Assembly (NCBI GenBank): GCA_949289455.1
Contig: CASEOA010000021.1
Location: 5,282-69,281 of the forward strand
Reading direction: 5' to 3'
Origin: an uncultured Eubacteriales bacterium
Lineage (GTDB): Bacteria > Bacillota > Clostridia > Oscillospirales > Oscillospiraceae
Length of the DNA stretch: 64,000 bases
Shown here: positions 381-42,879 of the stretch, piece by piece
How the letters are laid out: each line of letters starts with the position of its first letter
Numbering within the stretch: position 1 is the first letter of the stretch
The notes under the pieces: model-generated
Seen by the model: the letters and a program-made list of their open reading frames with translations, nothing else
Database searches by the model: none
What the model was told of the DNA's origin: nothing
Program-made: the position numbers and the translations under genes

Positions 381-472
381 TGGCGGAGAGAGAGGGATTC
401 GAACCCTCGAGACGCTATTAACGCCTACACGATTTCCAATCGTGCGCCTTCGACCAACTCAGCCATCTCTCC
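381..472 (-). tRNA. tRNA-Ser (anticodon GGA), long variable arm, encoded CCA
   Basis: Reverse complement GGAGAGATGGCTGAGTTGGTCGAAGGCGCACGATTGGAAATCGTG...GGTTCGAATCCCTCTCTCTCCGCCA: acceptor stem, TTCGAA T-loop, GGA anticodon, G discriminator. Confidence 0.97.
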
Positions 473-4408: not shown

Positions 4409-5947
4409 ATGACGATTGCGAAAAACAGCCTGTTGATCCGCTTCATCCTGGCCATCTGGCTGGGCTTGAAGGAGGCGCTGCCGGAGAGCCTGGTGGGCCG
4501 GGGCTGCCAGCGGCTGGCCGACTGGGCCAACCGCCAGGCGTCGGGCAGCGTGATCTGCCGCTTTGTGTGGCGGGAGGGGCGTCTGCCCGCGGCCTGGCCA
4601 AACAGTATAGCCTGCCGGTGTGTTACCGGCCTGTTAAACATCCCCTGCGCCATAGTCAAAACCATCTGGAAGGCGGGGGAGCCGGTGTGGCGGGACAGCC
4701 TGTTCTGCCGGGCGGTCACCGCCCTGGGCGGCGGCACCTTCTTCTTCCTGGGCCTGTTTATGTTGGCCATGCTGGCCGCGCCCCATGAGCTGTGGAACAA
4801 CCTATACGGCCTCTTGGGGGCGGCGGGGCTCACCGTCCTCTTTGTCCTGGGTAGCGCTTCCCACAGGCGGTACCGGCTGGAGGTGGATACTCTGGGGCCC
4901 TACATGTTCTTCTACGGGTGCCTGATTTGCCTGGCCCTGCTGGGCTCGGCCTCCACCGGCCTGTCCCTGCGGTTCTTCCTGTTCCATGTCACCTGCTTCC
5001 TGCTGATGCTGGTGGTGGTCAGCGGGGTGCACAAGTATGAGCAGCTCCAGCTGACGGTGGCCCTGGCGGTGCTGGGCATCTCGGTGGCCGCCGTGTACGG
5101 CTGCTATCAGGGCTACCAGGGGGTGGAGGTTATCGCCTCCCTCCAGGATATGACGGTAAACGAAGGAATGCCCGGGCGGGTCTACTCCTTCTTTGACAAT
5201 CCCAACAACTTTGCCGAGCTGCTGACCATGCTGCTCCCCCTGGATCTGGCCCTCTTCCTCAATTCCCAGTGGCGGGGCAAGCTCCTGTCCCTCCTCTCTC
5301 TCTGCTTTGGAACGGCGGCCATCGGCATGACCTACGGCCGCTCCTGCTGGATCGGCGCGGCGCTGGCGGTGGTGGTTTTCCTGGCTCTGATGGACTGGCG
5401 GTGGGTGCCGGTGATTATCCTGGCGGGGATTGCCGCGCTGCCCTTCCTGCCCACCTCTATCTACAACCGGATTCTCACCATCACCAACACGGAGGACAGC
5501 TCCGTCCAGTACCGGTTTGAGATCTACTCCACCAGCTGGAACCTGTTGAAGGACAACTGGCTCAAGGGTGTGGGCCTGGGCAGCGACGTGACCCACCGGG
5601 CCTTTTCGGTGGGGGCCTATCCCACCATTTCCGATGGCAACTACCCCCTCCACTGCCACAACAACTATATGCAGATGTGGCTGGAGACCGGCATCCTGGG
5701 TATCCTGTCCTTCCTGGCCCTGCTGCTGTGGCAGCTGAAGGAGGGTGTGAAGGCCTTCCACCGGTCCCTGGACCCCCGGGTGAAGCGGCTGCTGGCCGCC
5801 GCCATCGGCGCGTTCTGCGGCATTATGGTGGTGAGCGTGGCCGAGTACACCTGGTATTATCCCCGGAATATGTTCACCTACTGGTTTTTGTTCGGGGTGA
5901 TCGCTGCCTGTGTCAAGCTGGTACGGCTGGAGCAGAAGCGGAAGTAA
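4409..5947 (+). CDS. O-antigen ligase/Wzy_C family membrane protein
   Basis: Many TM helices; GRVYSFFDNPNNFA, TYGRSCW, GVGLG, HCHNNYMQMWLETGILG. Confidence 0.9.
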   Translation: MTIAKNSLLIRFILAIWLGLKEALPESLVGRGCQRLADWANRQASGSVICRFVWREGRLPAAWPNSIACRCVTGLLNIPCAIVKTIWKAGEPVWRDSLFCRAVTALGGGTFFFLGLFMLAMLAAPHELWNNLYGLLGAAGLTVLFVLGSASHRRYRLEVDTLGPYMFFYGCLICLALLGSASTGLSLRFFLFHVTCFLLMLVVVSGVHKYEQLQLTVALAVLGISVAAVYGCYQGYQGVEVIASLQDMTVNEGMPGRVYSFFDNPNNFAELLTMLLPLDLALFLNSQWRGKLLSLLSLCFGTAAIGMTYGRSCWIGAALAVVVFLALMDWRWVPVIILAGIAALPFLPTSIYNRILTITNTEDSSVQYRFEIYSTSWNLLKDNWLKGVGLGSDVTHRAFSVGAYPTISDGNYPLHCHNNYMQMWLETGILGILSFLALLLWQLKEGVKAFHRSLDPRVKRLLAAAIGAFCGIMVVSVAEYTWYYPRNMFTYWFLFGVIAACVKLVRLEQKRK

Positions 5948-24103: not shown

Positions 24104-24220
24104 CTGCGTCTTCTTCCATCCAGACTATACTGTCGGTTTTGGAATTGCACCAAATCCTGCGCTGACGCGCTCGCGGACTATACCGCCGATCGGGAATTTC
24201 ACCCTGCCCTGAAGACTGTG
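24104..24220 (-). ncRNA. FMN riboswitch (RFN element)
   Basis: Minus strand GTCTTCAGGGCAGGGTGAAATTCCCGATCGGCGGTATAGTCCGCGAGC...CCGACAGTATAGTCTGGATGGAAGAAGAC upstream of the rib operon. Confidence 0.97.
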
Positions 24221-31584: not shown

Positions 31585-32796
31585 ATGGATATCACTGCTC
31601 GTCTGCAGGATCATCAGAAGTGGATCAGAGAGGAGCTGGAGCGGAGCATTTCGTTCTGGCTGAAGAACGGCATGGACCCGGTGAACGGCGGCGTGTACAC
31701 CTGCCTGGACCGGGAGGGCAAGATCTTCTCCACCGACAAGAGTGTGTGGATGCAGGGCCGCTGTGCCTGGACCTTTGCCTACCTGTGCCACACCTACGGG
31801 GTGAAGGAGGAGTGGCTGGCCGCCAGCAAGAGCTGTCTGGACTTTATGGAGAAGTACTGCATCAACCGTGAGGCGGGCAACCGGATGTACTTCACCGTTA
31901 CCGGGGACGGCAAGCCCCTGCGCCAGCGCCGCTACTGCTTCTCCGAAGGCTTTTACGCCATCGCCAACGCCGAGTACTACGGAGTCACCGGCGACAAGGT
32001 CTGCCTGGAGCGGGCCCGGGCCGCCTATGACCTGATCTGGAACCTGAACAACGGCCTCATCCAGGACCCCACCGGCATGGGTCCCAAGACCATCCCCGAG
32101 ACCAGGTCCGGCCGTGCCCTGGCCAACCCCATGATCTATCTGAATATCACCTCCGTGCTCCGCCGGGTGGACCCGGAGCAGGCCGAGCTGTACAACCAGC
32201 GGGCCTCCCAGTGCGTGGATGAGATCTTCCGCTACCACTATAAGCCCGAGCTGGGCTGCACCCTGGAGAGCGTGGGCCCCAACGGCGAGTTCCGGGGCGA
32301 CGTCACCGAGGGCCGGGTGGTCAACCCCGGCCACGACATCGAATGCTCCTGGTTCCTGATGGAGGACGCCAACCTCCGGGGCAACAAGGAGCAGCACGCC
32401 ACCGCCGTTAAGATTTTTGACCAGGCCATCAACGCCGGCTGGGACAAGGAGTACGGCGGCCTGCTCTACTTCATTGACTGCCTGGGCCGTCCGCCCGAGG
32501 CCTATGAGCACGACATGAAGCTGTGGTGGCCCCATGACGAGACCCTCATCGCCTCTATCATGATCTACCGGGACACCGGGGACGAGAAGTACCTGGGCTG
32601 GTTTGAAAAGACTCTGGAGTACTGCAAGCAGTATTTCTCCGATCCGGAGTACGGCGATTGGTTCGGCTACCTCCGCCGGGATGGCAAGCCCACCGAGCCT
32701 CCCTGCAAGGGCTCTACCTTCAAGGGCCCCTTCCACCTGCCCCGAATGCTTATTATGTGCGACGTGATGATCGGCCAGATCATGGAGCGGAATTGA
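31585..32796 (+). CDS. N-acylglucosamine 2-epimerase (AGE family; ManNAc to GlcNAc)
   Basis: DKSVWMQGR, NPGHDIECSWF, KLWWPH.E, KGPFHLPR. Confidence 0.93.
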   Translation: MDITARLQDHQKWIREELERSISFWLKNGMDPVNGGVYTCLDREGKIFSTDKSVWMQGRCAWTFAYLCHTYGVKEEWLAASKSCLDFMEKYCINREAGNRMYFTVTGDGKPLRQRRYCFSEGFYAIANAEYYGVTGDKVCLERARAAYDLIWNLNNGLIQDPTGMGPKTIPETRSGRALANPMIYLNITSVLRRVDPEQAELYNQRASQCVDEIFRYHYKPELGCTLESVGPNGEFRGDVTEGRVVNPGHDIECSWFLMEDANLRGNKEQHATAVKIFDQAINAGWDKEYGGLLYFIDCLGRPPEAYEHDMKLWWPHDETLIASIMIYRDTGDEKYLGWFEKTLEYCKQYFSDPEYGDWFGYLRRDGKPTEPPCKGSTFKGPFHLPRMLIMCDVMIGQIMERN

Positions 32797-32806
32797 GAGG
32801 GCGGCC

Positions 32807-33661
32807 ATGCCCATCGTCAATGTCTTTGAGAAGATCAACGGTGAGTACTATCAGCTGACCAGCGCCGAGAAAAAGGTGGCCGACTACGCAGTCATCCACC
32901 AGCAGCAGACCCAGTTCATGTCCATCTCCGAGCTGGCGGAGGAGGCGGGGGTGGCCGAGGCCACCATCTCCCGCTTCTGCAAGCGGCTGGGGTATAAAGG
33001 ATACAGCGCCTTCAAGCTGGCCATTGCCAACGCCACCGCCGGTCGGCAGGAACCGGGAGCTATCCGGCGGGAGGGCCTGGAGGAGGACAGCCTGGAGGGG
33101 ATCTGCCGGGCGGCCTACGAGAATGATGTGGACGCCCTGCGGCAGACCATGGAGCTGCTGCGGCCTGAATTCATCCGCAAGGCGGCGGATATGATCGCCT
33201 CCGCCGGGCGGGTGCTGTGCATGGGGCAGGGGGGGTCCATGATCCTGGCCCAGGAGTGTGCCCACCTGTTCAGCACCATCCAGATGAATTTTCAAGCAGT
33301 GATGGACTCCCACATGCAGGCCATTGCCGCCTCCCAGCTGACGGCAGGGGACGTGGTGATCTACTTTTCCTACTCCGGCTCCACCACCGCCCTGCTGAAA
33401 AACCTCCAGCTCATCCAGGAGCGGAAGGCCCGCTCCATCCTGGTGACTCGGTTTCCCAAATCCCCCGGCGCGGCCTACGCCGACGTGGTGCTCCAGTGCG
33501 GCGCCCGGGAAGGCCCTCTCCAGGGGGGGTCGGTGGCCGCCCGGGTGGCACAGCTCTATCTTATGGACGTGCTGTTCCGGGAGATCTGCCGCCGGGATCC
33601 GGAGGGCTGCCGCAGCAGGCAGGAAATGGTAGCTGAAGTGCTTTCTGATAAGCACATTTGA
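32807..33661 (+). CDS. RpiR/MurR family regulator (NanR-like)
   Basis: SISELAEEAGV.EATISRFCKRLGYKGY HTH; SIS domain SYSGST. Confidence 0.93.
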   Translation: MPIVNVFEKINGEYYQLTSAEKKVADYAVIHQQQTQFMSISELAEEAGVAEATISRFCKRLGYKGYSAFKLAIANATAGRQEPGAIRREGLEEDSLEGICRAAYENDVDALRQTMELLRPEFIRKAADMIASAGRVLCMGQGGSMILAQECAHLFSTIQMNFQAVMDSHMQAIAASQLTAGDVVIYFSYSGSTTALLKNLQLIQERKARSILVTRFPKSPGAAYADVVLQCGAREGPLQGGSVAARVAQLYLMDVLFREICRRDPEGCRSRQEMVAEVLSDKHI

Positions 33662-33679
33662 CCACGGACGGCGGATTTT

Positions 33680-33759
33680 GAAAAAAATTTGCAGAGTCGA
33701 TAAAAAAAGAAAAAAATCAGCGTTTTACTATTGACAAATCCTGAGCTGAACTGTACAAT
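33680..33759 (+). promoter_or_regulatory. Promoter of the sialic acid uptake/catabolism operon with a degenerate operator
   Basis: TTGACA(33731)-17-TACAAT; GAAAAAAATTTGC at 33680-33692. Confidence 0.65.
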
Positions 33760-33826
33760 CTACACAACGGGTTACCGCAAAGGTAATCACATTCTTATTC
33801 AAAAAAATAAGAGGAGGAAGTATGAA

Positions 33827-35179
33827 ATGAAGAAACGGATTCTTGCGCTCCTGCTGGCCGCTTCCATGTCCCTGGGCCTGGCGGCCTGCGGCGGCGGTGG
33901 CGGCACCACCCAGACTCCCGCCGGCGGCGAGAGCAGCACCCCCTCCGGCGGCGGCGACACCAGCTCCGTGGAGCTGAGCCTGTGGGCCTTCAACATCGGC
34001 GGCTTCACCGACGCCGCTGCCTGGGACTCCATCGTGGCGGCCTTTAAGGAGGCCAACCCCGGCATCAACGTGACCGTGACCCCCATCAACTACCAGGACG
34101 GCGACCAGAAGCTGACCACCGCTATCAGCTCCGGCAACGCCCCCGACATCATCTTTGAGGGCCCCGAGCGCATCGTGGGCAACTACGCCCGTGAAGATCT
34201 GATGGTGGACCTGTCCGACCTGTGGACCGCCAGCGGCTCCGATATCGCCGAGGGCATCTCTTCCGTGTCCCAGCTGGATGGTACTTACTACATGTATCCC
34301 CTGAGCGTGGCTGCCCACTGCATGGCCATCAACTACGAGGCCTTTGAGGCCGCCGGTGCTCTCCAGTACCTGGATGAGACCACCCGTACCTGGACTACCG
34401 ATAACTTTGTGAAGGCCATGGAGGCCATCCGTGACGCCGCTGCCGCCGGTACCATCAACATCACCGTGCCCGGTATCATCTACTGCGGCGCCCAGGGCGG
34501 CGACCAGGGCACCCGTGCTCTCGTCAACAACCTGTACTCCGACTACTATGTCAACGAGGACGGCACCTCCTACCTGGCCAACAGCGAGAACAACGTGAAG
34601 GCTCTCAAGCTGCTGCAGGATATGGTGAACAACGGCTCCATGAGCGCCAACGCCAGCTTCGCCGCTTCCGACGAGCTGCAGGCTTTTGCCAACCAGACCT
34701 GCGCCGTGAGCTTCTGCTGGAACTACTCCAACTACACTCAGTACGCTGAGCAGACCCAGTTCACCCCCTTTGCCATGGCTTTCCCCTCTGACGACGGCAC
34801 TCCCGAGCTGGAGATGGCCGGCCCCTACGGCTTCGGCGTGTTCAACAACGGCGACCAGACCAAGATCGACGCCGCCAAGAAGTTTGTGGACTTCGTGTGC
34901 AACGACCAGACCACCGGCACCGAGGCTGTGAAGGTCACCGGTTTCTTCCCCGTCCACAGTGACTGGGGCGATGTCTATGCTGACGCCGAGGACGCCGACG
35001 TCCGCGCTCCCTTCGCTCTGATGAGCGACTATCTGGGCCGGTACTACGCCCTGACCGGCGGCTGGACCGAGCAGCGCGCCCTGTGGTGGCCCATGCTCCA
35101 GGCGATCATGACCACCGGCGCCGACGTGCAGACCGCGGCCGATGACTTCGTGACCCAGGCCAACGCCAACATCGGCTAA
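33827..35179 (+). CDS. Carbohydrate ABC transporter substrate-binding lipoprotein (probably sialic acid)
   Basis: Lipobox LAAC, CUT1 SBP features (APDIIF, DG..Y.YP), GAGGAGG RBS, nan context. Confidence 0.88.
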   Translation: MKKRILALLLAASMSLGLAACGGGGGTTQTPAGGESSTPSGGGDTSSVELSLWAFNIGGFTDAAAWDSIVAAFKEANPGINVTVTPINYQDGDQKLTTAISSGNAPDIIFEGPERIVGNYAREDLMVDLSDLWTASGSDIAEGISSVSQLDGTYYMYPLSVAAHCMAINYEAFEAAGALQYLDETTRTWTTDNFVKAMEAIRDAAAAGTINITVPGIIYCGAQGGDQGTRALVNNLYSDYYVNEDGTSYLANSENNVKALKLLQDMVNNGSMSANASFAASDELQAFANQTCAVSFCWNYSNYTQYAEQTQFTPFAMAFPSDDGTPELEMAGPYGFGVFNNGDQTKIDAAKKFVDFVCNDQTTGTEAVKVTGFFPVHSDWGDVYADAEDADVRAPFALMSDYLGRYYALTGGWTEQRALWWPMLQAIMTTGADVQTAADDFVTQANANIG

Positions 35180-35206
35180 ACCCCCTATTCCAAGAAGGTT
35201 GACCCG

Positions 35207-35258
35207 ACCTGAGCAAATCTGTGCCCGCTCCCTGTGAGGGGGCGGGCACAGTTGCTGA
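35207..35258 (+). other. Intercistronic stem-loop after the SBP gene
   Basis: CTGTGCCCGCTCCC...GGGGGCGGGCACAG with no U-tract; typical mRNA stabiliser position. Confidence 0.55.
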
Positions 35259-35310
35259 TATCTGGCAATCCTAAGGTACCAAAATATGTGTTGAAAGAGG
35301 GGAGATACTT

Positions 35311-36240
35311 ATGGCGCAGAATGCCGTAGCAACCGGCAAGAAACCAAAGAAGGAAAAGCGTTCTCAGTTCTCCGGAATGAGTAAGGCGCTGGTTCGGAGA
35401 GAAACCATCTCCGCCTACCTGTTCCTGCTGCCCAGCTTGGTGTTCTTTATTGGTTTCGTTGTCATTCCCATGTTCATCTGCGTATTCTACAGCTTTATGG
35501 AATACGGCCTGGGCGGCATCAAGGGCTTTGCCGGCCTGGATAACTACATCAAGCTCTTCCAGGACCCTGTGTTCCACCAGGGCTTCCTGAACACTCTGCT
35601 CATCGTGGTGATCGCGGTGCCTTGTGTCACTGCCTTCTCCCTGTGGGTGAGCTCCGCCATCTATAAGATGCACGCCTTCACCCGCTCCTTCTTCCGCTGC
35701 GTGTTCTACCTGCCGGTGGTTACCGGCTCGGTGGCCATCACCGTGGTGTGGAAGTGGATCCTGCACCCCTACAACGGCATCCTGAACCAGCTGACCGGGA
35801 CCACCGGCTTTGACTGGCTGGGCAATTCGTCCACCGCCGTCTGGTTCATCATCCTGATCCTGTTCACCACCTCCATCGGCCAGCCCATCGTGCTGTACGT
35901 GGCGGCCCTGGGCAACGTGGATCAGTCCCTGGTGGAGGCCGCCTCCGTGGACGGCGCCACCAAGCTCCAGGTGTTCTGGAAGATCAAGTGGCCTCAGATC
36001 ATGCCCACCACCCTGTACGTGCTGGTTATCACCACCATCAACTCCTTCCAGTGCTTCGCGCTGATCCAGTTGTTGACCAAGGGCGGGCCCATGAACGCCA
36101 CCATGACCATCATGTACCAGGTCTACGACACCGCTTACCGGCTCAACGACCTGGGCTACGCCAACGCCATCGGCGTCATCCTGGCCATCATCATCGCGAT
36201 CTTCTCTGCCATCCAGTTCAAAGTGGTCAAGACTGATTAA
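35311..36240 (+). CDS. Carbohydrate ABC transporter permease 1
   Basis: GLDNY, EAASVDGA (EAA loop), about 6 TM. Confidence 0.93.
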   Translation: MAQNAVATGKKPKKEKRSQFSGMSKALVRRETISAYLFLLPSLVFFIGFVVIPMFICVFYSFMEYGLGGIKGFAGLDNYIKLFQDPVFHQGFLNTLLIVVIAVPCVTAFSLWVSSAIYKMHAFTRSFFRCVFYLPVVTGSVAITVVWKWILHPYNGILNQLTGTTGFDWLGNSSTAVWFIILILFTTSIGQPIVLYVAALGNVDQSLVEAASVDGATKLQVFWKIKWPQIMPTTLYVLVITTINSFQCFALIQLLTKGGPMNATMTIMYQVYDTAYRLNDLGYANAIGVILAIIIAIFSAIQFKVVKTD

Positions 36241-36254
36241 AGGGGGGTGAGAAC

Positions 36255-37097
36255 ATGAAAGCTAAAACTGATTTGAGCGGTACTTCTACCGGTTATAAGG
36301 TATTTGCCGTGGTGGTTCTGATCCTGCTGGCGCTGTTCTTCCTGTTCCCCCTGTACTGGATCGTCACCGGCTCCTTCAAGGACGCCATCGAGATCAACGC
36401 CAAGTATCCCGTCTGGTTCCCCATGAGCCCCACCACCGACAACTATTCCCGGCTGTTTGAGCACGAAGCCTTCCTGTGGCTGTTCAACATCGTGTTTATC
36501 TCCGCCATGGCCATGATCCTCACCTGCCTCACCGCCGCCTTTGCCGGCTACGCGCTGGGCAAGAAGCGGTTCTATGGCCGGAGCATTCTGTTTACCATCA
36601 TCATCTGCGCCATGGCCCTGCCCAAGCAGGTTATCGTTATCCCCCTGCTGCAGGAGATGACCTTCTTCCACATGAACAACAACCTGTGGGCGGTCATCCT
36701 GCCCACCGTAGGCTGGCCCTTCGGCGTGTTCCTGATGAAGCAGTTCTCCGAGACCATCCCCAACGAGATCCTGGAGGCCGCCCGTGTGGACGGCGCCGGC
36801 GAGCTGCGCACTTTCTTCAGCGTGGTCTTCCCCATGATCAAGCCCGGCATCGGCGCTCTGGCTATCTTCACCTTCGTCAATACCTGGAACGACTACTTCC
36901 TCCAGCTGGTCATGCTGACCAGTGAGTGGAACTGGACCCTGCCCCTGGCCATCGCCAACCTCCAGGGCGAAATGTCCTCCGACTTCGGCCTGATTATGGC
37001 CGGCGCCGCCCTGGCCGCCATCCCCATCGTGGTGGTGTTCATCGCCTTCCAGAAGTACTTCACCCAGGGCATCGCCATGGGCGCTGTCAAGGGCTAA
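36255..37097 (+). CDS. Carbohydrate ABC transporter permease 2
   Basis: EAARVDGA, WNDY, FQKYFTQGI..GAVKG. Confidence 0.93.
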   Translation: MKAKTDLSGTSTGYKVFAVVVLILLALFFLFPLYWIVTGSFKDAIEINAKYPVWFPMSPTTDNYSRLFEHEAFLWLFNIVFISAMAMILTCLTAAFAGYALGKKRFYGRSILFTIIICAMALPKQVIVIPLLQEMTFFHMNNNLWAVILPTVGWPFGVFLMKQFSETIPNEILEAARVDGAGELRTFFSVVFPMIKPGIGALAIFTFVNTWNDYFLQLVMLTSEWNWTLPLAIANLQGEMSSDFGLIMAGAALAAIPIVVVFIAFQKYFTQGIAMGAVKG

Positions 37098-37140
37098 GTT
37101 TCCACCCGCTCTATCAATCATTTGAGAGAAGGTTTTTAAC

Positions 37141-38046
37141 ATGAGCGATCTGAAAAAATACCAGGGCGTGATCCCCGCCTTCTATGCCTGCTATGACGAG
37201 GCCGGCAACATCTCCCCCGAGGGCGTAAAGGCCCTCACCCGCTACCTCATCGGCAAGGGCGTCAACGGCCTGTATGTGGGCGGCTCCTCCGGCGAGTGCA
37301 TCTACCAGAGCGTGGAAGAGCGCAAGGTGGTGCTGGAGAACGTGATGGCGGAGGCCAAGGGCAAGGTGGTTATCATTGCCCACGTGGCCTGCAACAACAC
37401 TGCCGACAGCATGGAGCTGGCTGCCCACGCCGAGAGCCTGGGCGTGGACGCCATCGCCGCCATTCCCCCCATCTACTTCCACCTGCCCGAGTACGGCATT
37501 GCCCAGTACTGGAACGACATCTCCTCCGCCGCCCCCAACACCGACTTTGTGATTTACAACATCCCCCAGCTGGCCGGCGTGGCCCTGACCCCCTCTCTGC
37601 TGGCTGAGATGCAGAAGAATCCCAAGGTCATCGGCGTGAAGAACTCCTCCATGCCCGTCCAGGACATCCAGATGTGGAAGGACGCCGGGGTCATCGTGTT
37701 CAACGGGCCCGACGAGCAGTACATTTCCGGCCTGGCCATGGGCGCCTGCGCCGGCATCGGCGGCACCTACGCCGTCATGCCCGAGCTCTTCCTGAAGGTG
37801 TACGAGCACTTCCAGAAGGGCGAGATGGAGCCCGCCCGGGAGATCCAGAACGAGATCTGCCGGATCATCTACAAGATGTGCTCCGCTCACGGCAACCTGT
37901 ACGCCGTGATGAAGGGCATCCTGGCCAAGAGCGGCGTGGTGTGCGGCTCCGTCCGCAAGCCCATGCCCGGTCTCATTGACAGCGACGCCGCCGTGGTGGA
38001 CGAGTCCTACGCCATGATTACCGCCGCCATCGCCAAATACTGCTGA
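37141..38046 (+). CDS. nanA: N-acetylneuraminate lyase
   Basis: GVIPAFYACYD, GSSGECIYQS, IYNIPQ, GVKNSS, NGPDEQ, GGTY. Confidence 0.9.
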   Translation: MSDLKKYQGVIPAFYACYDEAGNISPEGVKALTRYLIGKGVNGLYVGGSSGECIYQSVEERKVVLENVMAEAKGKVVIIAHVACNNTADSMELAAHAESLGVDAIAAIPPIYFHLPEYGIAQYWNDISSAAPNTDFVIYNIPQLAGVALTPSLLAEMQKNPKVIGVKNSSMPVQDIQMWKDAGVIVFNGPDEQYISGLAMGACAGIGGTYAVMPELFLKVYEHFQKGEMEPAREIQNEICRIIYKMCSAHGNLYAVMKGILAKSGVVCGSVRKPMPGLIDSDAAVVDESYAMITAAIAKYC

Positions 38047-38112
38047 TCGGTTCAAACACAGGGGCGGGCTGTCCGCCCGCCCCAAATTTGAAAAGCTAGG
38101 AGTATGCTTATC

Positions 38113-38865
38113 ATGCGTATTTATCAATCGGAAGATTATAAGGCCATGAGCCGCCGGGCCGCCAACATCATCTCCGCCCAGGTCATCTACAAGCCCGACT
38201 GTGTACTGGGCCTGGCTACTGGCGGTACCCCCGTGGGCACCTACAAGCAGCTGGTGGAGTGGTACAAGAAGGGTGACCTGTCCTTTGCCGAGGTGCGGTC
38301 CGTCAACCTGGACGAGTATGTGGGCCTGTCCCCCCATCACGAACAGAGCTATCGCTACTTCATGCAGGATAACCTGTTCGACCACATTGACATCAAGCCG
38401 GAGAACACCCATGTGCTCAACGGCCTGGCCAAGAATCCCGAGGCGGAGTGCGCCGCCTACAACAAGCTGATCCAGGATCTGGGTGGCATTGATTTGCAGC
38501 TGCTGGGCATGGGCCACAACGGTCATATTGCCTTCAACGAGCCGGGCGACGACTTTGGCCTGGAGACCCATCTGGTCACCCTCACCGACCGCACCATCGA
38601 CGCCAACACCCGTTTCTTTGAGAGCCGGGACGAGGTGCCCCGCCACGCTCTGAGCATGGGCATCAAGAATATCATGCACGCCCGGCGGATTCTGATGGTG
38701 GTCAGCGGCGAGGACAAGGCGGAGGCTGTGTACAACGCCTTTGCCGGCCCCGTCACCAGAGACGTCCCCGCCTCTATTCTGCAACTCCATCCCGATGTGA
38801 CCCTGGTGGGCGACAAGGCCGCCCTCAGCAAGCTGGTGGAAGCGGGTGTGCCCGTATGCGGATAA
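38113..38865 (+). CDS. nagB: Glucosamine-6-phosphate deaminase
   Basis: LGLATGGTP, NLDEY, G.G.NGHIAFNEP, PASILQLH. Confidence 0.96.
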   Translation: MRIYQSEDYKAMSRRAANIISAQVIYKPDCVLGLATGGTPVGTYKQLVEWYKKGDLSFAEVRSVNLDEYVGLSPHHEQSYRYFMQDNLFDHIDIKPENTHVLNGLAKNPEAECAAYNKLIQDLGGIDLQLLGMGHNGHIAFNEPGDDFGLETHLVTLTDRTIDANTRFFESRDEVPRHALSMGIKNIMHARRILMVVSGEDKAEAVYNAFAGPVTRDVPASILQLHPDVTLVGDKAALSKLVEAGVPVCG

Positions 38866-39977
38866 CCGGCGGTCAGGTCTTTGACCTGCATGAGGGTTTT
38901 GTCCAGCGGGACCTGTGTTTCGACGGACGGCTCATCACCAATTCCAGCAGCGACGGGGAGAGCTATGACGCCTCCGGCTGCTATGTGATCCCCGGCCTCA
39001 CCGACGTGCATTTCCACGGCTGCAAGGGCCATGACTTCTCCGATGGCGACCCCGAGGGCCTGGAAATCATGGCCCAGTACGAGCTGTCCCGGGGCGTGAC
39101 TCAGATCTGCCCCGCCGGCATGACCCTGCTGGAGGAGCAGCTCACCAAGGTATGCCAGACTGCCGCCGCCCACAAGGCGGCCGACAAGCCCGGCGCCGCC
39201 CTCTGCGGCATCAACCTGGAGGGCCCCTTCCTCTCCATGGCCAAGAAGGGCGCTCAGAATGGCGATTGGCTCCATGCCCCCGATGTGGATATGCTCCATC
39301 GCCTGATGGCGGCCTCCCGCGGCCTGGTAAAGCTGGTGTCCCTGGCGCCCGAGGAGCCCGGCGCCATGGAGTTCATCAAGGCCGTGGAGAGCGAGGTCAC
39401 CATCTCCATTGCCCACACCACGGCGGACTATGATACCGCCATGGAAGCCTTCCGCCTGGGAGCCCGGCAGGCTACCCACCTGTTCAATGCCATGCCCGCC
39501 TTTACCCACCGCGCCCCCGGCGTGGTGGGGGCCGCCCTGGACAATCCCCAGGTGCGGGTGGAGCTCATCTGCGACGGCGTCCACATCCACCCCTCGGTGG
39601 TGCGGGCGGTATTCAAGATGTTCGGCGCCCAGCGGGTGATCCTGATTTCCGACACCATGCGGGCTGCCGGTATGCCCGACGGGGACTACACCCTGGGCGG
39701 CCAGGCGGTGCAGGTGAAGGGCAAGTACGCCACCCTGGCCGACGGCACCCTGGCCGGCTCGGTCACCGACCTGATGAGCTGCATGAAGACCGCTGTGTCT
39801 TTCGGCATCCCGCTGGCTGACGCCGTGCAGGCCGCCGCCGTCAATCCGGCCCAGGCCATTGGCGTCTTCAGCCGGGTGGGCAGCCTGGAGCCCGGGAAGC
39901 GGGCCAATCTGGTCATCCTGGATCAGGACCTGAACGTAAAAGACGTATTCTACCGCGGCCAGCTGGTTCGCGGCTGA
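38856..39977 (+). CDS. nagA: N-acetylglucosamine-6-phosphate deacetylase
   Basis: PGL.D.HFHG, LEGPF, AHT, THLFNAM, DG.HIHP, GTLAGS. Confidence 0.96.
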   Translation: MRITGGQVFDLHEGFVQRDLCFDGRLITNSSSDGESYDASGCYVIPGLTDVHFHGCKGHDFSDGDPEGLEIMAQYELSRGVTQICPAGMTLLEEQLTKVCQTAAAHKAADKPGAALCGINLEGPFLSMAKKGAQNGDWLHAPDVDMLHRLMAASRGLVKLVSLAPEEPGAMEFIKAVESEVTISIAHTTADYDTAMEAFRLGARQATHLFNAMPAFTHRAPGVVGAALDNPQVRVELICDGVHIHPSVVRAVFKMFGAQRVILISDTMRAAGMPDGDYTLGGQAVQVKGKYATLADGTLAGSVTDLMSCMKTAVSFGIPLADAVQAAAVNPAQAIGVFSRVGSLEPGKRANLVILDQDLNVKDVFYRGQLVRG

Positions 39978-40048
39978 ACGGACAGCAACCCCCAATTCTG
40001 GCCTCCCGGTTCTACTCCATTTCCCATAGGGCCGGGGGAGTCGTAAAA

Positions 40049-40170
40049 AAGGAGGAATCCCGCCGGGCCGGCGGTGCGGCAGTGTGGAGACCTGTCGTAA
40101 TGTCCCTGGAGTTTCGCTCTCCCGGGATAAGAGGGTATTTGCGGAGGCATTGCCCTTACGGCTCACGCAT
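40049..40170 (+). ncRNA. Putative structured cis-regulatory leader of the ABC ATPase gene
   Basis: Four consecutive hairpins between AAGGAGG (40049-40055) and ATG 40171; alternative long-range pairing TGCG/CGCA (manual pairing only). Confidence 0.5.
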
Positions 40171-41292
40171 ATGGCAACTGTGGTTCTGAAAGGCATCAAG
40201 AAGATTTATGACAACAAGGTGACCGCCGTCCACGACTTCAACCTGGAGATCGCCGATAAGGAGTTCATCGTGCTGGTCGGACCCTCCGGCTGCGGCAAGT
40301 CCACCACCCTTCGGATGGTGGCCGGCCTGGAGGACATCTCCGAGGGCGACCTGATCATCGGCGGCAAGCGGGTCAACGACGTGGAGCCCAAGGACCGTGA
40401 TATCGCCATGGTGTTCCAGAGCTACGCTCTGTATCCCCACATGACGGTATACGAGAACATGGCCTTCGCCCTGAAGCTGCGGAAGGTGCCCAAGGAGGAG
40501 ATCGACAAGAAGGTGCGGGAGGCCGCGGCGATTCTGGACATCACCCAGTACCTGGAGCGCAAGCCCAAGGCGCTGTCCGGCGGCCAGCGTCAGCGTGTGG
40601 CCATTGGCCGCGCCATCGTCCGTGATCCCCAGGTCTTCCTGATGGACGAACCTCTGTCCAACCTGGACGCCAAGCTGCGTAACCAGATGCGTGCGGAGAT
40701 CATCAAGCTGCGCCAGCGCATCAACACCACCTTCATTTACGTGACCCACGACCAGACCGAGGCCATGACCCTGGGCGACCGTATCGTCATCATGAAGGAC
40801 GGTTTCATCCAGCAGATCGGCACGCCTCAGGAGGTGTTCGACCGTCCCGCCAACCTGTTTGTGGCCGGGTTCATCGGCTCTCCCCAGATGAACTTCTTCG
40901 ACGGCAAGCTGACCAAGAAGGACGGCAAGTATCAGATTGCCGTGGCCGACGCCGTCATTGAACTGGCGGACAAGGCCCAGAAGATCCTGTCCGATAAGGG
41001 CGCCGGCGAGATGGACATCGTGGCCGGCATCCGTCCCGAGCACATTTCCTTCGCCGCTGTGGCCGGTCCTCACACCGTGTCCAGTACGGTGGACGTGTCC
41101 GAGATGATGGGCAGCGAAGTCTACCTCCATGTGACTGCCGCCGGCAAGGACGTGGTGCTGCGCATCCCCACCACCGACCTGCCTGAGGAGCACCGGGCTG
41201 GCATCCCCTATGGCACCGAGATCAACTTTGCGTTCCGCCCCGAGCTGGTTCATCTGTTTGATCCCCAGACCGACAAAAACCTGCTGTATTGA
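40171..41292 (+). CDS. Sugar ABC transporter ATP-binding protein (MsmK/MalK/UgpC family)
   Basis: GPSGCGKST, LSGGQRQR, MDEPLSNLD, VTHDQ, GIRPE. Confidence 0.95.
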   Translation: MATVVLKGIKKIYDNKVTAVHDFNLEIADKEFIVLVGPSGCGKSTTLRMVAGLEDISEGDLIIGGKRVNDVEPKDRDIAMVFQSYALYPHMTVYENMAFALKLRKVPKEEIDKKVREAAAILDITQYLERKPKALSGGQRQRVAIGRAIVRDPQVFLMDEPLSNLDAKLRNQMRAEIIKLRQRINTTFIYVTHDQTEAMTLGDRIVIMKDGFIQQIGTPQEVFDRPANLFVAGFIGSPQMNFFDGKLTKKDGKYQIAVADAVIELADKAQKILSDKGAGEMDIVAGIRPEHISFAAVAGPHTVSSTVDVSEMMGSEVYLHVTAAGKDVVLRIPTTDLPEEHRAGIPYGTEINFAFRPELVHLFDPQTDKNLLY

Positions 41293-41303: not shown

Positions 41304-41336
41304 AAAATCCCCGGCGCGTATGCGCCGGGGATTTTT
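41304..41336. terminator. Bidirectional terminator
   Basis: AAAATCCCCGGCGC-GTAT-GCGCCGGGGATTTT. Confidence 0.85.
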
Positions 41337-42879
41337 ATGCCAGAGGGGCCAGGACCCGGAGGATGGAGCGGAAGAGCCGCCGTGGCCAGGATCGGGCCAG
41401 GCAGTGCTCCAGGGTGATGGGGGTGCACTGGAGCTGGGAGGCCAGGAAGTCGGCCTTGATATCCAGAATGGAGGGGTCCCGGTAGAGGAGCACGGCGTTT
41501 TCAAAGTGGAGGAACATACTGCGGTAGTCCATATTGATGGTGCCCACCACCCCGTACTTGTCGTCGGCCACCACGTTTTTGGCGTGGACGAAGCCGGGGG
41601 TGTACTCCAGAATGGTGACCCCCGCCTCCAGCAGGGGCTGGTAGTGGGCCCGGGTGAGCTCAAAGACGGTGGGCTTGTCCGGAATGTGGGGGGTCATGAT
41701 GCGCACATCCACCCCTGACTTGGCGGCGTTGCACAGGGCGGTATTCACCGCACTGCTCACGATCAGGTAGGGGGTCATGAAGTAGATATATTTTCTGGCC
41801 CGGGCGATGAGATTGAGGTAGACCGCCTCTCCCACCGGCTCGTTGTCCAGGGGGTTGTCGGTATAGGGCTGGACAAAGCAGTCTTTACCCAGCTGGGCCT
41901 CCAGCGGCAGAGAGGTGGGCCGAAAGGCGTGATAATCCTCTGTTACCTCCCGGATATACTCCCACATGGTGAGGAACATCACCGTCATGCTCCAGGCGGC
42001 CTCCCCCTTCACCAGGATGGCGCTGTCCTTCCAGTGGCCAAACCGGAGTTTTTGGTTGATATACTCGTCGGCCAGATTGATACCGCCGGTGAAAGCGGTG
42101 TGGCCGTCGATGATACAGAACTTCCGGTGGTCCCGGTTGTTCATGCGGATGGAGATCACCGGGCGAAAGGGGTTGAAGCAGCAGCAGGGGATGCCGGTCT
42201 CCGCTTCAAACCAGGTGGCAAAGTGGGCCGGCAGGGTGGCCAGGGAGCCCACGTCGTCATAAATTACCCGTACATCTACCCCGGCGGCGTGCTTTTCTTT
42301 CAGAATATCCACAACGCTGTCCCAGAACCGGCCGGGAGCGATGATGAAGTACTCCAGAAAAATGTATCGCTCCGCCTTGCGCAGCTCCTCCAGCATTACA
42401 GGAAAAAGGTCGTCTCCCAGAGGAAAATACCGGGTCCAGGTGTTGGTGTACACCGGACAGCGGGCGCAGTACTCCAGATAGCGGGCCAGGGTCACCTCAT
42501 CCGTCCCCAGCTTAGCCAGGTGCTCTGCTTTGTTGTCGCCCTCCAGCTGCTCCAGCATAGTGCGGTCCATGCCCGCCATCTTCCGCTGCTGCCGGGGGGA
42601 GAGCCGGTTGCCGCCGCACAGCAGGTAGAGCAGCCAGCCGAACATGGGAAAGAGAAGGATGGGAATAATCCAGGCGATCTTGTACCCTGGATCGGTTTGG
42701 CGGCTGACGATGACCAGCACCGCCAGGGCGGACAGTACCACGCAGATCCAGTAGACATAGACGTAGTAGCTGGAGATCCATATCGTAGGCACCAGCAGCA
42801 CCAGCAGCTGTAGGACGATCAGCAGGGAGACCATGACCGTCCGCTGAAAGAGAAATGAGGTAATCTTTTTGACGTTCAA
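41335..42879 (-). CDS. cls: Cardiolipin synthase
   Basis: Two HKD motifs (RDHRK....DG, HAK....D), N-terminal TMs; TTG start with AAGGAGG. Confidence 0.93.
   Translation of the reverse strand: MNVKKITSFLFQRTVMVSLLIVLQLLVLLVPTIWISSYYVYVYWICVVLSALAVLVIVSRQTDPGYKIAWIIPILLFPMFGWLLYLLCGGNRLSPRQQRKMAGMDRTMLEQLEGDNKAEHLAKLGTDEVTLARYLEYCARCPVYTNTWTRYFPLGDDLFPVMLEELRKAERYIFLEYFIIAPGRFWDSVVDILKEKHAAGVDVRVIYDDVGSLATLPAHFATWFEAETGIPCCCFNPFRPVISIRMNNRDHRKFCIIDGHTAFTGGINLADEYINQKLRFGHWKDSAILVKGEAAWSMTVMFLTMWEYIREVTEDYHAFRPTSLPLEAQLGKDCFVQPYTDNPLDNEPVGEAVYLNLIARARKYIYFMTPYLIVSSAVNTALCNAAKSGVDVRIMTPHIPDKPTVFELTRAHYQPLLEAGVTILEYTPGFVHAKNVVADDKYGVVGTINMDYRSMFLHFENAVLLYRDPSILDIKADFLASQLQCTPITLEHCLARSWPRRLFRSILRVLAPLA

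Follow-up and report, generated by a model that had tools for sequence, protein, structure and literature searches.

An RNA leader in front of a malK/msmX-type ATPase gene was analysed in a 64,000-nucleotide (nt) stretch of DNA, hereafter the window, which represents positions 5,282 to 69,281 of contig CASEOA010000021.1 (assembly GCA_949289455.1) from an uncultured Eubacteriales bacterium of the family Oscillospiraceae. The leader belongs, as an ordinary and complete copy, to the malK-I RNA family (Rfam RF03069), which is a known family and not a new class. Throughout this family a near-invariant AAGGAGG, a Shine-Dalgarno (SD) sequence, stands about 115 nt before the AUG of the ATPase gene, and the distance between the two is mostly taken up by hairpins enclosed by a covarying long-range helix. 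It can tentatively be proposed, with a probability somewhat below one half, that these parts form a split ribosome-binding site which would be active only when the enclosed domain is folded. A sequence-only reading of the window had drawn attention to the leader as a multi-hairpin element with a displaced SD and had named the malK RNAs among its possible relatives.

Identity and layout of the leader

The kinship with the malK RNAs was borne out by cmscan, which matches malK-I at 39997-40176 (+) with 131.3 bits and an E of 1e-24 (the gathering score being 60.3 bits), over model positions 1-181 and untruncated; no other Rfam family matched the leader region at E up to 1. The consensus helices, namely a 5' hairpin and an outer helix around three hairpins, are all formed, the outer helix with 6 of its 7 pairs. 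The conserved blocks are present as well: the CUCCA loop, AAGGAGGA, GGUGCGGCAGUGUGGAGACCUGYCGUAA, GCGGAGGC, and AUGGCA. Regarding its position, the motif lies in the potential 5' untranslated region of a malK-type ATPase gene and ends at codon 2. The malK-I, malK-II, and malK-III motifs have been interpreted as probable cis-regulatory elements close to the SD of malK genes, and no ligand was discovered among the few candidates tried (Weinberg et al., 2017, Nucleic Acids Res 45:10811, PMC5737381). A literature search found no later paper on malK-I function.

Of 150 genomes sampled from the same GTDB family, 51 carry the motif, mostly as a single copy; sampling of 29 other families of the order, about 140 genomes in all, gave a single carrier. 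The source genome (2.25 Mb, 84% complete) has one copy only, while one genome (G024) harbors two divergent copies, L033 and L034. Among the best 80 MalK loci, 69 carry malK-I, with the motif ending at or just 5' of the start of the protein match. For the comparisons below, 53 leaders were aligned with MAFFT (alignment A1), and 69 further matches were aligned to a covariance model built from A1 (alignment A2); deduplication of the two sets gave 118 distinct leaders, mostly from Oscillospiraceae by record label. The features of the window are as follows, with lengths in nt or base pairs (bp).

39997..40176 (+): full malK-I motif (RF03069), from cmscan
40002..40039 (+): P1 hairpin, 13-bp stem 40002-14/40027-39, all 13 pairs with two-sided changes
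40015-19 (+): conserved anti-SD-like CUCCA within the P1 loop, with the CUCC core in 104 of 117 leaders
40049..40055 (+): AAGGAGG, SD-like, in an A-rich linker 115 nt 5' of the AUG, near-invariant
40060..40074 (+): S1, 4-bp helix CCGC 40060-63/GCGG 40071-74 with loop 40064-70, corresponding to hairpin 1 of the sequence-only reading, paired in 117 of 117 leaders
40065..40070 (+): S2 5' strand GGGCCG, pairing with 40159-64
40075..40099 (+): P3 hairpin, near-invariant, apical loop GUGGAGAC, GGAG at 40086-89, 99.1% (A1) and 99.7% (A2) of cells paired
40102..40128 (+): P4 hairpin, variable in sequence, all 9 pairs with two-sided changes
40131..40157 (+): P5 hairpin, apical GC-GGAG-GC, GGAG at 40143-46, most pairs covarying
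40159..40164 (+): S2 3' strand CGGCUC, ending 6 nt 5' of the AUG, pairing with 40065-70
40171..41292 (+): malK/msmX-type ABC (ATP-binding cassette) ATPase gene for CUT1 sugar importers, 373 residues, Pfam ABC_tran, OB_MalK, and TOBE_2

P3, P4, and P5 make up a compact three-hairpin domain closed by the 6-bp helix S2, and S1 clasps the 5' strand of S2. The hairpins drawn in the sequence-only reading, at 40060-74, 40075-99, about 40102-28, and 40131-57, are thus all present. The GGAG which it saw in each of the last three does occur at 40086-89, 40108-11, and 40143-46, but the P4 copy is unconserved and the P5 copy is absent from 25 of 117 leaders. In P3, eight loop bases are invariant (A1) and two-sided changes are seen in four or five of the ten pairs. 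The cells of P5 are paired to 91.6% in A1 and, for its two segments, to 92.1% and 98.0% in A2. In both copies from G024 the tip of P5 reads GCAAGUUC and not GCGGAGGC, with an S1 of the form CCCG/CGGG, which shows the GGAG of P5 to be dispensable.

The conserved loop of P1 could form at least 6 contiguous pairs with GUGGAG in the P3 loop in 96 of 117 leaders, but mostly only 4 pairs with the SD. From these complementarities, a kissing contact between the P1 and P3 loops, or a decoy switch, is possible; since the bases involved are all invariant, covariation is uninformative on such a contact.

Start codon and displaced Shine-Dalgarno sequence

Translation of the ATPase starts at ATG 40171. The deduced protein aligns from residue 1 with the solved chain 7x0q_A (E 1.5e-133), and its match to MsmX from B. 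subtilis (6yir) begins at residue 2 (E 1.6e-131); its nearest relatives by label belong to Flavonifractor, Vermiculatibacterium, Pseudoflavonifractor, and Oscillibacter, all Oscillospiraceae. AUG is the start codon in 117 of the 118 distinct leaders. Counted from the invariant loop of P3, this AUG falls into all three frames (44, 42, and 32 of the 118 leaders), and in 57 of 118 an in-frame stop lies within 120 nt 5' of the AUG. It follows that the in-frame GTG 40084 and TTG 40150, which the sequence-only reading had weighed as other starts for the gene, are not used as such and that the leader is non-coding. A leader peptide was rejected as well, because no start codon follows the SD, the frame is unconserved, and in-frame stops are frequent; ATG 40100, at the junction of P3 and P4, is out of frame with malK and unconserved. 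In some orthologues (those behind L109, L111, L113, L122-L124, L127, L132, and L136, and also L143 and L146), the protein match begins at residue 11 and the AUG of the leader is found about 100 nt further 5', which suggests an insertion of about 25 residues near the N-terminus; in L143 and L146 this insertion is rich in Lys and Glu.

The start codon has no properly spaced SD. As had been pointed out from the sequence, no ATG, GTG, or TTG is found at normal spacing 3' of AAGGAGG 40049-40055, while the 22 nt upstream of ATG 40171 reach only -1.7 kcal/mol against the anti-SD, compared with a genome-wide median of -7.15 kcal/mol for the SD duplex (from crude gene calls). This displacement is not a peculiarity of the window but holds across the family: the SD-AUG distance is about 115 nt throughout the 118 distinct leaders, and an SD-like tetramer within 20 nt of the AUG occurs in 6 of 53 and 6 of 60 leaders, i.e., in 12 of 113. 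Within the upstream AAGGAGG, G55, G56, and A57 are invariant in A1, and A52-54 and G58-59 are at least 90% conserved; the linker around it consists of A to 57%. Between S2 and the AUG, the tail measures 5-7 nt in nearly every leader (51 of 53 and 52 of 60).

Related ATPase genes lacking the motif are built differently. All 17 that were examined, namely seven in genomes of the same family, a paralogue in the source genome, and nine further orthologues, carry their GGAGG-like SD at normal spacing, about 6-13 nt upstream of the start codon. The paralogue (contig C15:12836-13918, +) encodes a MalK-type ATPase with 56% identity, has no malK-I, and shows GGAGG 9 nt before its ATG. One of these motif-less genes reads AAAAGGAGGAAAATATAC-ATGGCG, which resembles the flanks of malK-I minus the domain.

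The closing helices S1 and S2

The window alone does not separate these features from chance, because its fold energy is unremarkable (z = -1.25 versus shuffles, with a single-sequence fold that picks S1 and not S2) and because AAGGAGG occurs 31 times on its two strands, mostly within genes. The relatives are more telling. The sequence-only reading had made its proposal depend on covariation among related leaders, and the helices do covary in both alignments (53 and 69 leaders): the nested Rfam structure has 84.7% (A1) and 87.9% (A2) of its cells paired, compared with about 66% after shuffling and about 40% with slid partners, and none of 500 shuffles was as high.

With regard to S2, the inner five pairs are 99-100% paired, the worst single pair is unpaired in at most 1 of 53 and at most 2 of 69 cells, and two-sided changes are many, with 39 and 41 distinct strand combinations in the two leader sets. 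S1, when three registers are allowed, is fully paired in 117 of 117 leaders. With shuffled 3' strands, 85.2 +/- 2.4 leaders are paired (0 of 5000 shuffles as high), and shifted registers pair in 3-5 of 117. About seven pair combinations account for this helix: CCGC/GCGG, CCGU/ACGG, CCGU/GCGG, CCCC/GGGG, CCCU/GGGG, and CCCG/CGGG, together with CCUU/AGGG and CCGA/UCGG, which occur once each. Hairpin 1 of the sequence-only reading (CCGCCG/CGGCGG) is therefore real as the 4-bp S1, but its two inner pairs are not general; 40064-65/40069-70 are formed in 39 of 53 and 33 of 53 leaders only. Since these inner pairs overlap S2, they are specific to the CCGCCGGGCCGGCGG subgroup.

The 5' strand of S2 makes up the loop of S1, and the two helices therefore either form an H-type pseudoknot together or alternate as two states. 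In the commonest geometry, 1-2 nt lie between the S1 and S2 strands, S2 has 5-6 bp, and no spacer precedes the 3' strand of S1; as judged from the aligned leaders, such a geometry fits a classical H-type pseudoknot. The minimum-energy fold contains S2 in 19 and S1 in 19 of 53 leaders. The main text of the 2017 paper makes no mention of the 115-nt SD displacement or of S1 (PMC5737381), and S1 may be already annotated in the Rfam pseudoknot line or in the supplement of that paper.

The sequence-only reading had further proposed a fold in which the insert is looped out and few unpaired nt are left between SD and ATG. In outline this stands, as a conserved long-range helix does loop out three hairpins and leave few unpaired nt, but the helix is 40065-70/40159-64 and not the one that had been suggested. 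The latter, TGCG 40075-78 with CGCA 40166-69 extended by 40081-85/40158-63, was conceived as the "on" fold of a switch against hairpin 2, and its bases are indeed complementary in the window. Across the 53 leaders, however, it is paired to 65.9% compared with 66.1% after shuffling, partners slid by -3/+3 columns reach 54-58%, and no two-sided change is seen. Its formation would moreover disrupt P3, a near-invariant hairpin with 99% of cells paired, and the tail 40166-69 is unconserved, so that this switch can be regarded as refuted by the comparison. The conserved closing helix S2, on the other hand, does not exclude hairpin 2 (P3). Apart from a possible competition between S1 and S2, the leaders showed no conserved helices that would exclude each other; the conformational translation switch which that reading had in mind consequently stays a conjecture.

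A possible split ribosome-binding site and its alternatives

While related genes have normal SDs, AAGGAGG could serve AUG 40171 only with the domain folded, if an SD is needed here too. The domain closed by S1/S2 would fold and bulge out, leaving the 4 + 6 unpaired nt that are found around the pseudoknot in the window, and would thereby bring the SD, 115 nt upstream, within reach of the AUG. The folded domain would correspond to translation on and the unfolded or misfolded one to translation off, and the amount of the shared ATPase would be set by a ligand or protein that makes the domain more or less stable. Control at the level of translation is suggested by two observations taken together. 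No U-run follows any leader hairpin in the window and no terminator-like site is found on the + strand, which also makes a terminator or attenuator unlikely. In other genomes, malK-I can be found after nagA, after a permease gene, or 10-35 nt behind a clear -10 box, so that it must work in different transcript contexts.

Several points weigh against such a split site. The spacer from the SD to S1 varies from 4 to 12 nt, and spacer plus tail come to 13.8 +/- 2.4 nt, above the usual 5-10; the two lengths are weakly anticorrelated (rho -0.25). On geometric grounds, a stacked S1/S2 would put the 5' entry and the 3' exit at opposite ends of a stack of about 10 bp and so add to the SD-AUG distance. 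At least 1 unpaired nt between S1 and S2 would favour a pseudoknot, and most leaders have it, but 12 of 117 have none. Nested folds with S2 forced differ from those with S1 forced by a median of 0.1 kcal/mol, and coexistence of the two helices is indistinguishable by nested energies. The SD itself is moderately accessible in nested ensembles (mean unpaired probability 0.42). With about 100 nt, the bulged domain would, to our knowledge, greatly exceed every proven looped-out spacer in size. The few ligands tried by the original authors gave no binding (PMC5737381). All in all, the complete explanation, a malK-I member with a split ribosome-binding site under ligand or protein control, is somewhat less likely than not, and the mechanism by itself slightly less so, whereas the identity as malK-I is all but certain. 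The bolder version, in which malK-I would be the most extreme natural split site known, its domain of about 100 nt clasped by a covarying pseudoknot and a carbohydrate or energy signal acting on the clasp, perhaps with CUCCA-GUGGAG kissing, must be called doubtful.

The same fold could serve the opposite purpose. In an off-switch riboswitch, a metabolite would stabilise the S1/S2 pseudoknot and block the start region, whereas in the free state translation would proceed via a weak local context or upstream ribosomes; the distant AAGGAGG would then be a standby or loading site or a part of the fold. The core (P3 and the junctions) is aptamer-like and highly conserved, the pseudoknot abuts the AUG at a tight S2-AUG distance of 5-7 nt, six window-family leaders have their proximal SD-like tetramers in or beside the 3' strand of S2 or the tail (e.g., L012 and L028), and S1-forced and S2-forced folds are nearly equal in energy. 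Yet most leaders have no usable proximal SD, so that an opened domain leaves the AUG 115 nt from any SD, and every motif-less related ATPase gene examined uses a normal one. Adding the negative ligand trials of the original authors (PMC5737381), we consider an off-switch unlikely. If a protein were the regulator, the tips G(U/C)GGAG(A/G)C of P3 and P5, which resemble each other and whose bases vary little or not at all, might be recognised by the ATPase itself via its OB/TOBE domains or by an RNA-binding protein, which once bound would trap or admit a ribosome sitting at the upstream SD. Operator hairpins in non-contiguous initiation regions have a precedent in thrS and rpmE (PMC7297116). Moreover, the product is a shared subunit, the level of which would plausibly require feedback. 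Against this operator stand the loss of the P5 loop GGAG in 25 of 117 leaders and the want of a candidate protein, and we know of no RNA binding by MalK-type ATPases. CsrA (PF02599) would be the obvious protein to read GGA loops, but a search with positive controls in E. coli, B. subtilis, and T. maritima did not find it in the source genome, which is 84% complete, or in 4 of 5 other genomes with malK-I, one of these four belonging to the same genus and being 99% complete; CsrA is therefore excluded as the reader of the GGAG loops. An operator of this kind is accordingly rated as quite unlikely.

It can also be asked whether any signal is sensed. An unregulated structural element, either a constitutive part of initiation or a module that stabilises or insulates the mRNA, would be required by the position of the gene, which follows either other operons or a promoter of its own. 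In keeping with this, the motif occurs both 20-40 nt behind genes (nagA, permease) and directly behind promoter-like -10 boxes, and no conserved alternative pairing was found. However, the extreme conservation of P3 and of the junction bases exceeds what a spacer or stabiliser needs, and about two thirds of the genomes of the same family, as well as the motif-less related genes examined, manage with a plain SD; such an element is regarded as improbable.

MsmX/MalK-type ATPases energise many sugar ABC importers together, so that their dosage is a control point of carbohydrate use in gut Oscillospiraceae. If the split site were true, a pseudoknot clasp would dose the single ATPase that powers many sugar importers. 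Taken by itself, the copy in the window is an ordinary, textbook example of an RNA family that is already catalogued. Since its description in 2017, malK-I has remained an orphan, and what could so far be called a structured leader now becomes a directly testable model, which builds on a sole strong SD beyond a pseudoknot-closed domain and on motif-less related genes with a plain SD. The present analysis tested S1 quantitatively, rejected the TGCG/CGCA helix, contrasted the motif with related genes lacking it, and excluded CsrA.

Genomic context

A nagA-like gene, the last of a cluster for sialic acid and N-acetylglucosamine (GlcNAc), precedes the leader, with its stop codon 20 nt before the leader start.

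31585-39977 (+): sialic-acid/GlcNAc cluster with AGE-family 2-epimerase, RpiR regulator, binding protein, two permeases, nanA-like aldolase, nagB, and nagA

This cluster has no ATPase gene of its own; its obvious energiser is the malK that follows the leader. No sigma-70-like promoter was detected upstream of the leader in the window. A CCCCC-AAWU box lies 5-15 nt before the start of the Rfam motif in the window (39989-39998) and in L007, L008, L025, L029, L039, and L044. It can be found both behind nagA and behind a promoter (L044), and no conserved partner was found for it; it may be a 5' extension of malK-I.

Elsewhere in the window, an FMN (flavin mononucleotide) riboswitch (RF00050) is found at 24104-24220 (-) with 110.8 bits and a tRNA gene (RF00005) at 384-472 (-) with 57.7 bits. 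Two open reading frames 3' of malK, at 41320-41718 (+) with 132 residues and at 41929-42813 (+) with 294 residues, have no Pfam match.

Comparison with known systems

The leader shares with malK-I of Rfam the same helices, blocks, and gene position in a Clostridia-type genome, and nothing material differs. The actinobacterial msiK motif is an orphan cis-regulatory RNA before the same class of sugar-importer ATPase genes. As presented in the 2017 paper, malK-II and malK-III are likewise orphan cis-regulatory RNAs before this class of ATPase, with distinct structures (PMC5737381). In cmscan (E up to 1), the leader region matched malK-I alone.

Split initiation regions have reportedly been worked out in phage T4 by Nivinskas et al. 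in 1999 and by Malys and Nivinskas in 2009. In T4 genes 38 and 25, a hairpin brings SD and AUG closer together, to 5 nt instead of 22 in gene 38 and to 11 nt instead of 27 in gene 25, and is required for translation (PMC3014915). As in these genes, the SD of malK-I is too distant linearly, and an intervening conserved structure would shorten the effective spacing. In T4, however, a single small hairpin is involved and experimentally proven, whereas the bulge of malK-I is about 100 nt long, comprises three hairpins and a pseudoknot, and is known here from sequence. Moreover, about 10-19 unpaired nt remain in malK-I: compared with the functional T4-type spacing of 5-11 nt, the window has 4 + 6 nt and the family 13.8 +/- 2.4, to which the width or length of the closing helix must be added.

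In thrS and rpmE from E. coli, too, the parts of the ribosome-binding site are separated by a stable, conserved structure, on which the control acts (PMC7297116). There, in contrast to malK-I, the structure parts an AU-rich enhancer from the SD, the SD stands beside the AUG, and the regulators are known proteins. The preQ1-II, SAM-II, and other H-type pseudoknot riboswitches place a small pseudoknot by the start site, with its 3' strand near the AUG. While the pseudoknots of preQ1-II and SAM-II bury the SD, that of malK-I has the SD outside, 5' of the pseudoknot, and its long loop carries three hairpins.

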